Shown: piece by piece, positions 23,050 through 54,867 of the stretch
How positions within the stretch are numbered: position 1 is the stretch's first letter
Layout: each line of letters opens with the position of its first letter
Source: Octopus vulgaris
Taxonomy: Eukaryota
Direction of reading: 5' to 3'
Assembly: GCA_951406725.2 (NCBI GenBank)
Contig: OX597831.1
Coordinates: forward strand, 45,508,001 to 45,572,000
DNA length: 64,000 bases
Notes under the pieces: generated by a model
What the model saw: only the letters and a program-made list of their open reading frames with translations
What the model was told of the DNA's origin: nothing
Database searches by the model: none
Position numbers and translations under genes: made by a program

Positions 23050-23160
23050 TCTGACAGCTGTTTCGGCCGTAAGGGCAAGCATGCCTCATTTAACCTATAA
23101 GCCATATAAGGCAGGTATAAATGAGACATTAACAAGGATGCCCCACGGCCTCTTCAGAGA
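23050..23160 (-). ncRNA. Type I hammerhead ribozyme with canonical core and long stem II
   Basis: Minus strand reads tct-CTGAAGA-GGCCGT...(long insert)...ACGGCC-GAAA-CAGCTG-TC-aga. Stem III is palindromic and the cleavage triplet is GUC. Confidence 0.75.
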
Positions 23161-24601
23161 ATTTAATTTATTATAAGTGTGAAAACATTTTTTTATACAT
23201 ATAAATATAAAAATATAAAATATAAAAACGTGTGCATAGACACTCATAATACTACACATATATATACTCATTAATACAATAATACAAAATAAACAAAACA
23301 AAATATATCAATATATATTAACAAACACAGTTATTCTACATATTGGGCTACTAGTTCCAAAAACTAACCTACAGGAAAATATATGCACACTCACATTTAA
23401 ATTTAAATCAGACCTATACATAAAAAATAATTAAAAAAACACACAGTTCAGTTCATAAAATTATAAACCTATAAAAGTCAATAAAAATTACTATTAATAA
23501 TAATAATAATAATAATAATAATAATAATAATAATAATAATAATAATAATAATAATAATAATAATAATAATAAATACAATTATGTCTGTACCAAGTACATC
23601 AATCGCACATCTACATATCTATGAGTCTGATTATTCTGTCCACTTGATATTGATTATTCTAGATTAATTCGATTGGCTTATAGTTTTAAATTTGAATCAC
23701 AAAAGAAATTTTACGGTTAGTTAGTCAAGAAACGCACATACGCACATCCACAGATCAATCGCACATACATACATAATTATATGTATACATACACACATAC
23801 ACTCATATACATACATATCCACAAACACCGTCAAACACATAAATAAATAAATAATAAAAGAGGTATAATCGTAGCTATGCAGCCATCCAGCCTCTCAAAA
23901 CGACAACAATGCCACTAAATTAACTAAGAAGGTCCACTCACATATTTCCATAAAATATTTGTTATAAAGATACATATATTCATATATCAAGACATAGAAT
24001 GTAATTTTTTCGTAGGGTACACACAGCATGTGCCACCGTTTTTTCTGTAGTCATAGTATTATATAACATAACGTTTACTGATTTCACCGTAATTTGCTAT
24101 AATCACATGTACGCTAAGTTATAAAGTATAGATTAATTCTTTATAGTATAAATATATATCTTTTCTACGTAATAAATCCAATGCCATTATAATATTAATA
24201 TTTATCCATCAAAGAACCTAACCTACGAACTAATAGAATTACACTAAAATATACATGCCCATAATAATACTCATGTATAGCAGCAGATATACACAAACGC
24301 ACCGTCTATTTTCATATGTGACTCGCGAAAAAACATTCATAGTACTTATATATAAATATACTTTTAAGCAACCGTGGACACATAGATATAAATGTAATAA
24401 TTAACAATATTTGGCATTAAATAATATCAGTGGGGGACTTACCAATACAATGGTATATAAGTAAATAACAGAAATTAAATTAATTATAAGTTAATAAATT
24501 GTCATTACTTAAGATTAAAATGTGATAAAATAAATATATATATATATATATATATATAAAATATATATATATATATATATATATATATATATATATATAT
24601 A

Positions 24602-24800
24602 CTTTATTTAAAAGCAGCAGAAAATTCAACAAAACCTGTTACTCTGAGTTTCACGTTCCCGTTCGTCGGACAGTTTTTGAAACTCAGAGTAAGAGGTTTT
24701 GTTGAATGTTCTGCTGCTTTTAAATAAAGCATATTACTCTACCCCTGGTATTTGAGTAATCTTTTTTCCATCTTGTTTCACATTTATGTGTTTACTCCGG
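24602..24800. mobile_element. Short fold-back PLE-type terminus in (TA)n with a hammerhead motif
   Basis: Arms 24602-24652 and 24678-24729, with a ~70-bp tail on one side only. Minus strand 24631-24677 reads aaaactgt-CCGACGA-acg ggaa cgt-GAAA-ctc a gag-TA-acaggtttt. Confidence 0.7.
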
Positions 24801-51734: not shown

Positions 51735-52008
51735 GTACTTGCATAGCGAGTGACTTGATCTGAGATCGTGTGCTGGAACGAAAACAATTGCAGCGTGGAA
51801 GCCATTTAAGAAACACACAAAACCGTTAGATTCACTTCAACATTTTAATTTAATTTGTCAGATGCAGCACGAAGTTTTGTCAGTGAACAGGTCGCGGTCT
51901 CAAAGCGAAGAAAATATTTTGACAAATTAAATTTAAATGTTGAAGTGAATCTAACGGTTTTGTGTGTTTCTTGAATGGCTTATAAACACCTTCCACGCTG
52001 CAATTGTT
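51735..52008. mobile_element. Short fold-back element in (TA)n with a degenerate hammerhead-like spacer
   Basis: Arms 51783-51860 and 51920-52008, with a one-sided tail at 51735-51782 related to about 33279-33312. 51876-51926 reads tttgtca-gtgaaca-g gtcgc..gcga a-GAAA-atat-TT-tgacaaa. Confidence 0.6.
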
Positions 52009-53633
52009 ATATATATATAAATCGAAAGACACCTGTTGTTTATGTCATGTTATTTGTATTTGTGTAACATTCTCCGTTTTTTTTTTTTCGTCCTTGTTTT
52101 CGTATACAATCACTGCTTTCTTCCAAGGAATCTAATGCTCTTAGCTTAGTTTTTCCTTGGGGTTGGCCAGATTGGAGCAATCTCGAGTATAACCAGCCGA
52201 AATTGCAAAGATAATCTCGAACTCGACTGAGGAAAGAAAACTCAGAATGACCCGTCCTTGTTTTCTTTGTATCGTCTATCTGGATGTTTTGTTATCTCTT
52301 TTTTGTATCACCTAACTGTCTGGATGTTTTGCGTTCTTGTCCCATTCTGTATTATATATTTATATCCAATGAAAAGAACAAGGCAAAAAAAATTCTTTAA
52401 CACATCTTTAAACATAAATTACAAATTTTTCCGTACCATGTCCATTTGCAGCCGTAATATTTGCGGTTTTAAACATTGGAGAGGCATTTCATTAGATTTG
52501 TATAAAAAGGTATGCTAATATTGTGAAGCTTGGATTTTCTACATCTGAAATATTTCGACTTTGGCTTGGACCCCGACAGTGTTTACAGCTCGGTATTCGG
52601 TTTGAGCGCTTCTCTGGAAATACCCCCAACGTCACACCCAACCTGACCATAGCTATGTGCGTGCGTGTGTGTGTGTGTGTGTGTGTGTGTGTGTGTTTGT
52701 TTGTGTTTCTATGTGTATATGTTTATATATATATATATATATATATATATATATATATATATATATACATATATACATACATACACACACATGCATGTAT
52801 TTGTGTGTGTGTGTGTGTGTACATACATACATATATAGTCTTCTACTATATGGTAATTTGAACATTCCTTGTGTACATGTGCTATGATTTAAAGCAATCG
52901 TATTTTCGTTTTTGTGAAGTTTGGTGATATCTATAAAATGTATAATTGTTATACTGGGCCGATTTTTATGAAGCTTGGTAGAATGAAATAAACCACATGA
53001 TTGAATTTAGAAAGAACAAAATATGAATTGAATATTACGGAATTAATTTTGCCTTTTTAGATGTTTTACTTTGGAACATTCAATATGATGCGTAGAAGAC
53101 AACCTAATTCTTTTCAATCATCTGAAGCCTGACGCTCAAGAAGAAAAAGGGCTAGGCAAACAGGAAGAAAGACAGGACAGGTTCCAATCACAGAGACAAC
53201 GAAATGCCGTGGAGACACAAGAGCAACGAGAAGTAAAACTTCAGTTTGAGACAATCAGACAAACCCTCTTGAGAAAACATGAGACACAAGAGTAGAAACG
53301 ACGGAGATTGGAGATTGGAGTCTCAAAGCGATAGAAAAGGCCGCTTAAGAGAACAGGTGTTAACAGAACAACTTTAAAGTAAGTTAGCCAGAAATGCCCA
53401 CTCCAGAGAACAACGGCAAGTCAGGTCGGAATTTAGACCTTTTTCTAGTGAAGAATGGCGACTAGCATCCTTTAACTACGATGTCACACATGGGCATTAC
53501 TATAGATGATTTATGAACCAAAGTCCCTTAAGGGATGCGAGCATCGTAGTTCACCGGTTTATACCAGCGTTCAGAGAAAACCTAGTATATTAGTTTATCA
53601 CTGAAATGTATAGGTATTTAAATAAACCTTTTT

Positions 53634-54867
53634 AAATAAGAAAGTGAAGAAAATGGATAAACATTTGCGTACTGATGTTTTTATTGAAAGACATTCAAAT
53701 TCATAAATAGAAATCCCTACTTACAGCTGTTTCCATACCCAATTCTTTAATTTCAGAAATAAAATTACATATCCGAAACCAGTGAATTGGGTATATCCTC
53801 AGGGAGAATCTCAAAAAGAAGTCATTAAACAACGTGTAGGCTAACCTACGACAAACTCAGAATTGTGTGTCTATGTGTTTTTTTTTAACGCAAGCGTTCC
53901 ATACAAACCGTCATTACTACATATATACAAAAATAAACACATTCAACACATCCTTGCTCGTGCCAATATGATACACAATAGTTCATTAATGGTTATCAAT
54001 GAACCATCAATGGAAATTAAGATAGAGACATTATCGAGAGAAAAAAAAATAGTAGATAAAACTAGTGAATGGGGGAGAAAGTTATATATTGATTGTTAAG
54101 GTGATAGCAGCTAGATACGTCAATTCGTTGCGCATATTCCTGTCAATTAAACTACAAATTATCAAAATATATTATATCAAACTCCACCCAAATCCATCCA
54201 AAATTCCAACGTCAAACAATGTCTACTCAAATACACGGTCTATACGTACCAAGTAAACCCAAACGGAACCCACATATTACCAGATTTTACCTACTGAAAA
54301 TCTACACACATATCTCTTTAATATAAGCAATTATCAATGACTACTACAAACCTAATGATAGTTCCTGAATGTCCATTTTGATGCATGGACACAAGAAAAT
54401 CCAATTTCCATCTTAGTATTTGATAGACGTCTTCTAGAAAATAAAATCAAATACAGTTCTTCTAAACAAAGAAAGCAGAAAGACTTTCTAGGTTTACAAG
54501 TAGTGGCCCTGCTTATAATTTCCCATAATTTTTGTTATCCTTTAAATCCCAAATAATTTTACTAAGGCTAGCGGAAGCAGATCTATTTTTATTATTAAAG
54601 GTATAAATGTGGTTAGAAACATGTTTTCTAATAAAAATTTTGCGTAGCACCAATATAAACGTAATTTCTACCTTCAGAATATACCTTACACCTGTAAACA
54701 ACATTTTTCCGTTTACAATGTATACGCAATTCACTGGTTTCGAATATGGAATTTTATTTCTGAAATTAAAGAATTGGGTATGAAAACAGCTGTAGTTAAG
54801 AGTTTAATGCCTTTAAAAAAAAACATCAGTACGTAAATTTTTATCCATCTTCTTCATTTTCCTATTT
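53634..54867 (-). mobile_element. Decayed PLE with inverted terminal arms, GIY-YIG relic and hammerhead
   Basis: Inverted arms about 53634-53795 and 54721-54867. Minus peptide SNHIYTFNNKNRSASASLSKIIWDLKD parallels NNHTLSFRHWNKRKATQLSNHIWSLRD of the 37-kb ORF. Minus 53722-53802 reads CTGAGGA-tatacccaatt...aattgggtatg-GAAA-CAGCTG-TA. Confidence 0.7.

Follow-up and report, generated by a model that had tools for sequence, protein, structure and literature searches.

A TA-targeting PLE of the Hydra clade that bears a hammerhead, Hydra-1_Obim, has been published from octopus (Craig et al. 2021, PMC8557442). The 'tail' of PLE insertions arises from two internal starts of reverse transcription (PMC11167929), and PLE mobilisation of retrozymes has been argued from co-occurrence and pLTR similarity (PMC7229834; Li et al. 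2026, 10.64898/2026.07.22.740005). Described hammerhead variants include natural U3-A8 cores and a slow A6C core (Perreault 2011, PMC3088659) as well as the engineered C3G/G8C exchange, which gives partial rescue in vitro, a PLE hammerhead included (PMC8495972; PMC11167929), and Schistosoma harbours SINE-like hammerhead retroposons composed of a promoter and a hammerhead (PMC6765202). All of these sources except PMC11167929 are cited throughout from the available part of their text. A 2026 repeat annotation of Octopus vulgaris counts 893 recently active unclassified SINE families and leaves ribozymes unmentioned in its main text, and we found in the literature no report of octopus hammerheads or retrozyme footprints such as those described here.

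We analysed a 64,000-nt stretch of O. vulgaris contig OX597831.1 (referred to as the window in the rest of the text). An earlier note had placed about 13 type I hammerhead motifs, plus a degenerate one at 51876, between positions 23050 and 54867 of the window and had attributed them to a set of non-autonomous ribozyme elements mobilised by one (TA)n-targeting PLE system. Hammerhead motifs were present at all 14 sites, with the palindromic forms of stem III that had been listed; the sequence contexts, given as at least eight, are indeed several, and the motifs sort into 11 repeat families. The comparison with shuffled sequence that had been proposed was run on the window. A strict type I descriptor returned eight hits, seven of them at the listed sites and one at 6987 (-), outside the listed range, compared to means of 0.02 and 0.12 (maximum 1) in 60 dinucleotide shuffles each. 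A relaxed descriptor returned 13 hits, whereas 30 shuffles averaged 2.0 (maximum 5); two of the 13, at 52912 (+) and 48588 (-), resemble chance. Eleven of the 14 motifs passed either descriptor, the conserved core with stems I-III exceeding chance, and the motifs at 30127, 51009 and 51883 are decayed copies of otherwise intact families. A (TA)4 tract lies within 300 nt downstream of 9 of the 14 motifs versus 25.5% of random positions. The seven families that were counted have 82 to 9,600 exact matches each in the genome, and the 3-8 pair is Watson-Crick, being C-G in most of the 11 families. The Rfam matches listed for the window (150 of 341 rows) contained microsatellite-driven miRNA matches and one tRNA but no hammerhead, and Rfam gave no match at the gathering score in six loci. 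A hammerhead-like hit within the ORF of another locus (L436) was discounted. Judged from their sequence, the motifs in the window are confirmed as true hammerhead motifs of type I, with self-cleavage as a prediction. Three cores differ from their earlier description: 29344 deviates at position 6, 43583 has a U3-A8 core and 51883 a G3-C8 core. The genome copies discussed below were sampled with DNA queries, which favour query-like copies, or with patterns, which always retrieve the ribozyme.

Elsewhere in the genome, PLE RT-endonuclease ORFs are joined to 6 of the 11 families (9 of the 14 motifs). The six linked families are PLE ends, mostly short ones, and by their putative proteins three would be of Hydra type, two of Neptune/Nematis type and one of Penelope/Poseidon type. 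The PLEs behind the motifs are thus of at least three types, not one system as had been supposed, and since six families are joined to PLE ORFs, the case that the earlier note had itself named as removing the novelty applies to them.

Family F (35446..38522, +), a Hydra-clade PLE with (TA)n at both ends, comprises a 5'-truncated ORF (36844-38166, +) and an inverted 5'-truncated copy (35446-36848, -), with hammerhead cores at 38367 (+) and 35528 (-), and its right end extends about 70 nt beyond 38522 as a tail. The best 94 matches in the genome reach 99-100% identity and contain open frames of up to 720 amino acids; a 23-mer has 4,222 exact matches in the genome, and 21 of 30 copies begin no more than 110 nt from the anchor. 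The protein has RWK and DKT motifs, a CxCX5C linker, and CxxC and CxH around E/N, and lacks CCHH. These traits, together with a single ORF ending in GIY-YIG, a length below 3 kb, the hammerhead and insertion into (TA)n, are those of the Hydra clade as given in the available part of PMC8557442; Pfam did not detect the domains of this ORF. Family A is represented by a piece of the 3' UTR of a Hydra-type PLE (22864..24530, -; core 23157, with a long stem II), and its best 40 copies are 93-100% identical. In two of four long loci, an ORF with DKT and 30-49% identity to F lies upstream; the interpretation of family A as non-autonomous was rejected once this ORF appeared about 3 kb upstream. Family J is a decayed 3' end of a Hydra-type PLE (53631..54870, -; core 53802) with an endonuclease remnant (54364-54617, -; tblastn E 0.005) and an inverted piece (54721-54870, +), and its other copies show 30% identity to F.

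Families D and K probably belong to Neptune or Nematis PLEs, as suggested by a CX2-5CxxC linker in front of a GIY-YIG domain with two C and two H residues. Family D forms a head-to-head pair (29960..30295, both strands; cores 30059 (-) and 30127 (+, decayed)) and corresponds to the 3' end of a PLE whose linker is CX4CxxC and which has a GIY-YIG domain; endonuclease frames were translated upstream in the three loci examined out of 15 fetched. Family K is present as a short pLTR copy with an inverted piece (51735..52008, +; hammerhead 51876-51926). Its motif is the one that had been called degenerate; it belongs in fact to a G3-C8 family, the most unusual of all, whose ribozyme 20-mer has 6,323 exact matches in the genome. 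The window copy has the G3-C8 core at 51883, U17 and a point mutation at the base of stem II. The family is carried by an intact PLE of 1,025 amino acids (locus L291) with a CX3CxxC linker and a GIY-YIG domain recognised by Pfam. The 3-8 pair is G-C in 93 of the first 100 matches listed; a sister PLE, whose stem II is compensated, has C-G, and 3 of 19 metagenome relatives have either U-A or C-G. This G3-C8 core is likely a compensated one, predicted to be still functional.

The 5' edge of K copies is sharp and common to them, lying a short way upstream of the ribozyme: 7,544 matches were counted for a 20-mer about 100 nt downstream and 6,323 for the ribozyme 20-mer, yet only 1 of 30 position-ordered copies extends 45 nt further upstream. 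Two sites account for the 3' ends of all 27 insertions (11 and 16 insertions, respectively), with a TA flank in 19 and an inverted 5' piece in 15. In 11 of 19 copies, the base immediately preceding the common start is a G instead of the genomic C or T (p 0.0003 versus 20%); an adjoining inverted piece is a possible source of the extra G in several copies. Two apparent tandem pairs (C15 and C2) turned out to be segmental duplications of flanking DNA rather than pLTR-ORF-pLTR arrangements.

Family I appears to be the 3' end of a Penelope/Poseidon-type PLE. It forms a head-to-head pair (50973..51540, both strands; cores 51009 (-, decayed) and 51408 (+)). Its tRNA-like head maps to 51147-51224, an (AAT)n tract lies inside the element on the 5' side of the hammerhead, and a 24-mer has 3,445 exact matches in the genome. 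The head occurs in 19 of 30 loci and is joined to a PLE ORF end in 4, which weakens the reading of family I as a free-standing SINE. A and B boxes are recognisable by eye in the head, whose 5' end is reached by 15 of 30 copies; it gave no Rfam tRNA match at the gathering score, and ARAGORN did not call it in the window. A zinc-finger linker was not seen in the endonuclease-end fragments of four loci, which do not include the RT. Inverted 5' pieces occur in 19 of 28 copies, and (TA)4 follows the 3' end in only 3 of 28. Family I is not (TA)n-targeted, and the claim that the motifs are PLE-associated and lie at (TA)n, which stands for most families, fails for this one.

For families B, C and E no parent element was found. 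Family B is a short head-to-head pair (24602..24800, -; core 24669) with two alternative 3' ends into (TA)n; a 24-mer has 1,908 exact matches, no ORF hit was obtained in 30 loci, and a TA flank and an inverted piece occur in 24 and 11 of 28 copies, respectively. Its interpretation as a fixed, MITE-like hairpin was dropped because the junctions differ between copies. Family C is an element of about 200 nt (29270..29465, +) with 9,600 exact 27-mers in the genome, a TA flank in 22 of 30 copies and a hammerhead-like core (29344) in which A6 is replaced by U or C. It is the only family in which A6 is not conserved: U6 is present in 28 of 30 sampled copies, and position 7 is A, C or U in nine copies each and G in one. 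A U6 is expected to cause a strong loss of activity in a hammerhead. Family E is an older short element (32270..32470, +) whose hammerhead is minimal (core 32305); its remaining 39 scored copies are 80-92% identical, and no linked ORF was found in 15 loci.

The G3-C8 motif of K and the U6 motif of C could both be relics without cleavage, the PLE spreading without them. The presence of U17 in K fits this possibility, as do the Naiads, which thrive without canonical hammerheads (PMC8557442, in the part available), and the in vitro results that hammerhead mutants have no effect on PLE insertion and that C3G/G8C rescue is only partial (PMC11167929). However, both halves of the 3-8 pair changed jointly and the pair is Watson-Crick in three forms across one PLE lineage, the 7-bp stem I and 5-bp stem II of the K motif constitute its predicted minimum-energy fold, and in family C only position 7 varies freely. 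We therefore consider loss of cleavage rather unlikely and favour a compensated core in K.

Alternatively, as the earlier note had proposed, most motifs might belong to independent, non-autonomous ribozyme elements that a single PLE system targeting (TA)n moves. Most copies are indeed short and ORF-free, as illustrated by the 5' starts of F and the 30 loci of B; G, H and likely L (see below) are non-autonomous, and B, C and E could be. To that extent the proposal holds, but 6 of the 11 families are continuous with PLE ORFs of three endonuclease types and the TA flank is nearly absent from family I, making it quite unlikely as a general explanation.

On sequence criteria, families G and H are true non-LTR retrozymes, with tandem monomers of 170-400 nt, one type I hammerhead each, a GC content below 50% and no ORF. 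The window holds part of a 361-nt monomer of G (43549..43789, +; U3-A8 core 43583), which adopts a canonical type I fold, has 82 exact 29-mers in the genome and is tandem in only 1 of 60 loci (L372). Family H has a 352-nt monomer, of which 1.47 units ending in (TA)n are present (44834..45350, +; core 45102), with 907 exact 27-mers in the genome and tandem arrays of up to nine units. Both families have 42-45% GC, a 6-bp stem I and 64-66% predicted pairing as circles; their tandem monomers are circularly permuted, and they are dispersed over many contigs. The end-to-start joint of H was seen in all four runs compared, an observation on contigs with no bearing on expression. Covariation, proposed earlier as a check, was evaluated in G, where the U-A 3-8 pair occurs in 31 of 32 aligned rows and 94% of cells are paired. 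Seven two-sided changes were matched by none of 500 shuffles, five of these seven cells reflecting a single subfamily change, but two of five measures were no better than shuffles (80/500 and 397/500). The hit at 6987 belongs to family L (6790..7100, -), outside 23050..54867, which has a near-palindromic 10-nt insert in stem III; its sequence continues in circular permutation, and it is likely a third retrozyme.

PLE 5' truncation and inversion are standard (PMC8557442, available part), and local amplification of PLE termini has been modelled (10.64898/2026.07.22.740005, available part), so that all 11 families could be viewed as randomly 5'-truncated PLE ends, with G and H as pLTR-derived minisatellites amplified at the DNA level. 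Yet insertions of G and H are spread over many contigs, end 3' at fixed positions and show both TA flanks and inversions; each monomer runs on into its own beginning, and the PLE protein hits seen at 4 of 53 loci fall within flanks that differ among copies. In addition, the 5' edge of K is far sharper than random truncation predicts. We regard this explanation as very unlikely and retain G and H as retrozymes.

The 3' ends of H insertions lie 172-173 nt past the predicted cut in 14 of 23 cases and 215-219 nt past it in 6, and those of G 172-184 nt past it in 16 of 30 and 219-238 nt past it in 9. A TA flank was found in 20 of 23 H and 16 of 30 G insertions, and an inverted 5' piece in 13 and 7, respectively. 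The 5' ends are scattered over the monomer and coincide with the cut in 1 of 23 H and 0 of 30 G insertions. Two fixed 3' ends in K, H and G fit the PLE 'tail' produced by two internal RT starts (PMC11167929). It is thus probable that the window contains ribozyme ends of at least six PLE families and two retrozyme families, all inserted by PLE RT-endonucleases. Such enzymes would likely nick AT-rich DNA, mostly (TA)n, and copying would begin from two fixed internal positions, both located 3' of the ribozyme. Most short copies would be cDNAs spanning the stretch from a transcription start in the pLTR, shortly before the hammerhead, to the first internal priming sites; autonomous PLEs would thus generate them as by-products, and they would not constitute non-autonomous families of their own. 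It is likely that a PLE protein targeting TA copies G and H in trans, the template being uncleaved multimers or circles closed by re-ligation. The ribozymes probably act slowly, either dimerised or aided by a protein, and the insertion ends would not be set by cleavage. Counting against this model, neither the G nor the H monomer resembles the 10 PLE loci compared (best E 0.2), and eight of nine retrozyme dimers assayed showed no cleavage (10.64898/2026.07.22.740005, available part).

The retrozymes could instead be moved by something other than a PLE with a C-terminal endonuclease, for example a Naiad or an RTE-type LINE. RTE-like LINE remnants are present in the window, and Naiads, of which octopus families are on the available part of the published list, likewise show tails, inversions and a (TA)n bias. 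However, published accounts portray cephalopod Naiads as remnants that have long been inactive, while F and K are represented by intact, nearly identical copies. LINEs are established to prime at the RNA 3' end, and two fixed internal ends are therefore not expected from them. Another mover thus seems improbable, and insertion of G and H by PLE enzymes remains our preferred model. Taken further, and only tentatively, since we would give it somewhat less than even chances, an active octopus PLE may bear the first G3-C8 hammerhead known from nature, its 3-8 pair being one of three Watson-Crick forms within a single PLE lineage, and the same genome may record how PLE enzymes choose their templates: priming would occur at two fixed internal positions on RNA left uncleaved, pLTR transcripts yielding thousands of fixed-length ribozyme 'solo ends' and retrozyme circles or multimers yielding (TA)n insertions.

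If true, this would provide direct footprint evidence for retrozymes as PLE passengers. It bears on how metazoan retrozymes move and on what PLE hammerheads do, the insertion ends indicating that the inserted unit is not defined by cleavage, and young intact PLEs of several types beside retrozymes with mappable ends make driver and passenger directly testable. A natural G3-C8 core would extend known hammerhead sequence space; descriptors fixed on C3-G8 miss K and the U6 family C, about 16,000 exact matches in this genome. Lunse et al. 2017 reportedly gathered about 150,000 PLE hammerhead variants, and G3-C8 could be among them. The rest of the literature searched held no natural G3-C8 core, which appears there only as an engineered rescue.

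Compared to known systems, the octopus motifs resemble published hammerheads, in the parts available, in their short palindromic stem III, the extra base between 9 and 10.1, the U3-A8 variant, the many families per genome, mostly single copies, and the head-to-head pairs at a spacing of 100-700 bp. Neither the G3-C8 core of K nor the U6 core of C was found among the published hammerheads compared in those parts, from which the very long stem II of A and J, both related to the Hydra clade, also differs. The hammerhead of F differs from the one given for Hydra-1_Obim in the available text, making F another family, and F has tandem pLTRs and thousands of copies when set against Hydra-1_Obim. Family I is like the Schistosoma retroposons, as described in the available text, in having a tRNA-like head followed by a hammerhead, but its head follows immediately after the stop codon of a PLE ORF and is therefore part of an autonomous element. 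G and H correspond to the non-LTR retrozymes of PMC7229834 and 10.64898/2026.07.22.740005 (available parts) in their 352-361-nt monomers, GC content, tandem copies, type I hammerhead with a 6-bp stem I, lack of an ORF and predicted pairing as circles, the U3-A8 core of G differing from those compared there; whereas the retrozyme papers argue from co-occurrence, the insertion footprints of G and H are themselves PLE-like. Finally, K has the same swapped 3-8 pair as the C3G/G8C mutant, but as a natural pair, fixed in an intact high-copy PLE family.

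All 14 hammerhead ribozyme (HHR) sites of the earlier note were present in the window, which comes from a 2.8-Gb animal genome rich in microsatellites. A strict type I descriptor retrieved 8 motifs, whereas two sets of 60 dinucleotide shuffles, made block by block, averaged 0.02 and 0.12. A relaxed descriptor, allowing any Watson-Crick 3-8 pair, a free position 6 and a bulge beside stem II, gave 13 matches (mean 2.0, maximum 5 in 30 shuffles), two of which look like chance matches. Eleven of the 14 sites passed one or other descriptor; sites 30127, 51009 and 51883 (numbered by core start) carry stem-breaking changes. 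(TA)4 occurred within 300 nt downstream of 9 of the 14 sites, compared to 25.5% at random.

Every HHR context in the window proved to be a dispersed repeat, belonging to one of 11 families (A to K). Exact genome matches, which are lower bounds and for which reversed-pattern controls gave 0, numbered at least 9,600 for family C, 6,323 for K (ribozyme 20-mer), 4,222 for F, 3,445 for I, 1,908 for B, 907 for H and 82 for G; for families A, D, E and J, copies were sampled through DNA searches alone. The HHR families may already be present, unrecognised, in existing repeat libraries. The text and one supplement of a 2026 O. vulgaris repeat annotation mention neither hammerheads, ribozymes, retrozymes nor Hydra.

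The proposal that these motifs represent non-autonomous ribozyme elements holds for two retrozyme families, G and H, but most motifs are instead ends of Penelope-like retrotransposons (PLEs), which account for six families (F, A, J, D, I and K). Family F (35446-38522) is a 5′-truncated element with an inverted partner; its best 94 genome matches show 99-100% identity, and the open frame of full copies spans 717 codons. A further Hydra-like PLE, 34% identical to F, is represented by broken reverse transcriptase (RT) fragments at 56330-56999 (-). Family A corresponds to the long 3′ UTR of a further Hydra-type PLE, whose ORF was seen in 2 of 4 long loci, and family J retains an endonuclease remnant, found in its window copy as well as in others. 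Motifs rather than trees place D and K as Neptune or Nematis type and I putatively as Penelope/Poseidon type. In the 3 loci translated, D lies behind an endonuclease whose linker is CX4CxxC; I lies behind a linker-less endonuclease, in the order stop codon, tRNA-like segment, internal (AAT)n and hammerhead (ORF-head join in 4 of 30 loci, head in 19). The PLE to which family K belongs has a CX3CxxC linker. Its broken copies show the terminal repeat (pLTR) linked with the ORF on either side, and at L291, a locus outside the window, a frame of 1,025 aa is intact and matches Pfam GIY-YIG. Among named proteins, the closest to one PLE protein of this genome is labelled Octopus vulgaris (57% identity), which makes an octopus host likely. 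Searches of 30 loci for B, 15 + 30 for C and 15 for E turned up no ORF-bearing parent. J and B each have an inverted partner, at 54721-54870 (+) and 24690-24735 (+), respectively, that retains GAAA and stem III without the 5′ core.

Short K copies have a sharp 5′ edge. A 20-mer located about 100 nt downstream of the ribozyme had 7,544 matches compared to 6,323 for the ribozyme 20-mer, and only 1 of 30 copies reached 45 nt upstream of stem I, most starting 12-20 nt upstream of it. Just before this start, 11 of 19 such copies carry a G in place of genomic C or T, which would fit a cap-templated base; in several copies the adjoining inverted piece can supply this G. Copies of B and F are likewise mostly short. 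Transcripts would begin within the pLTR, shortly ahead of the hammerhead, and reverse transcription primed at the first internal sites would give short copies of fixed length; no separate families would then be needed to account for so many motifs of non-autonomous appearance.

Families G and H are non-LTR retrozymes with a 6-bp stem I and no ORF. The H monomer (352 nt) forms arrays of up to 9 units; that of G (361 nt) was seen as a tandem at one locus of 60 and in circularly permuted form at the others. PLE protein matches in 4 of 53 G/H loci fall in the flanks, and neither family resembles the 10 PLE loci tested. In an alignment of 32 G copies, 94% of cells are paired and 7 cells changed on both sides, a number reached by 0 of 500 shuffles, although 5 of the 7 probably reflect one subfamily event. 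The U3-A8 core is retained in 31 of the 32 copies. Two further U3-A8 hammerhead families occur elsewhere in the genome, one at L079, L271 and L300 and the other, at L119, a compensated relative of G. Family L at 6790-7100 (-), with its core at 6987 and outside the range of the earlier note, is a likely third retrozyme; its stem III contains a near-palindromic insert of 10 nt, and its monomer is circularly permuted.

Insertion ends were mapped in position-ordered samples of 30 loci, from which overlapping ones had been removed (7 for H, 3 for K, 2 each for B and I). The 3′ ends of H lie 172-173 nt (14 of 23) or 215-219 nt (6 of 23) past the predicted cut, and those of G at 172-184 nt (16 of 30) or 219-238 nt (9 of 30); all 27 K 3′ ends fall at either of two sites about 60 nt apart. 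In H, (TA)n follows 20 of the 23 insertions; 13 have an inverted 5′ piece and 11 are longer than one unit. TA flanks and inversions were found in 16 and 7 of 30 G insertions and in 19 and 15 of 27 K insertions, respectively. The 5′ ends of H are scattered across the whole monomer, one of 23 being at the predicted cut. PLE protein would copy G and H from multimers or circles.

The motif at 51876, previously regarded as degenerate, has a GUGAACA core with a G3-C8 pair and belongs to high-copy family K, its window copy (core 51883, +) being indeed stem-broken. In order, the K motif consists of stem I (7 bp), GUGAACA, a single unpaired G, stem II (5 bp), GAAA, a stem III that is palindromic, and U17. 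A pattern leaving positions 3, 7 and 8 free had 6,424 matches; among the first 100 listed, 93 have G3-C8, 7 a single change and none C3-G8. Of the 8 nearest ORF-bearing loci retrieved, 5 supplied nine copies, all identical. A sister family of PLEs, with open frames of 1,312 aa and about 62% identity in the RT, is also present in this genome; its hammerhead shares the architecture of K and carries C3-G8, C9, U17 and a compensated pair in stem II. A hammerhead could be parsed behind the ORF in 3 of 19 metagenome relatives, as U3-A8 in one and C3-G8 in two. Hammerheads of K relatives (L295-L297 pLTR; L435 at 2497) carry C instead of A9 along with U17. In family C, 28 of 30 copies have U6, yet position 7 takes all four bases.

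Elsewhere in the window, a TA-ending repeat family at 46226-46430 (-), 48990-49130 (+) and 52010-52345 (+), two copies of which lie about 700 nt apart in L258, has CUGANGA followed by GAAU instead of GAAA and weak stems; it is a putative atypical or dead hammerhead. Two repeat copies at 33738-34128 and 41940-42332 (79% identical), with CUGAAGA at 33911 and 42107 and no intact GAAA, are possibly decayed PLE ends. LINE remnants lie at 2427-3338 (-) and 5236-5670 (-), with a C-terminus that we read as RTE-like and a Pfam RVT_1 match. A common SINE-like head in three tandem 155-bp copies occupies 1885-2350, another short repeat forms a head-to-head pair at 30775-31089, and a tRNA-Gly(TCC) gene at 46730-46801 (+) is immediately preceded by a (TA)n tract.

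Paired 3′ ends ("tails") and inverted 5′-truncated partners are known PLE features (PMC8557442), and Frangieh et al. (PMC11167929) obtained the tail in vitro from two internal RT start sites, with uncleaved RNA as the substrate. The retrozyme papers (PMC7229834; 10.64898/2026.07.22.740005) base their case for mobilisation by PLEs on co-occurrence and similarity to pLTRs; the words "tail" and "insertion site" are absent from the latter, a 2026 preprint, and our search found no other paper on retrozyme insertion footprints. Natural U3-A8 hammerheads have been described (PMC3088659). Our search returned G3-C8 only as an engineered partial rescue (PMC8495972; PMC11167929), but did not extend to Lunse et al. 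2017, so priority for the natural core is uncertain. The family F protein has all Hydra-clade motifs given by Craig et al. (PMC8557442). Their study already includes a Hydra element from octopus that has a hammerhead and prefers (TA)n; the F hammerhead is unlike the one listed there. PLE hammerheads, octopus Hydra elements and mollusc retrozymes are all known kinds; what goes beyond the ordinary here is the PLE-type footprints of retrozymes and the natural G3-C8 core.
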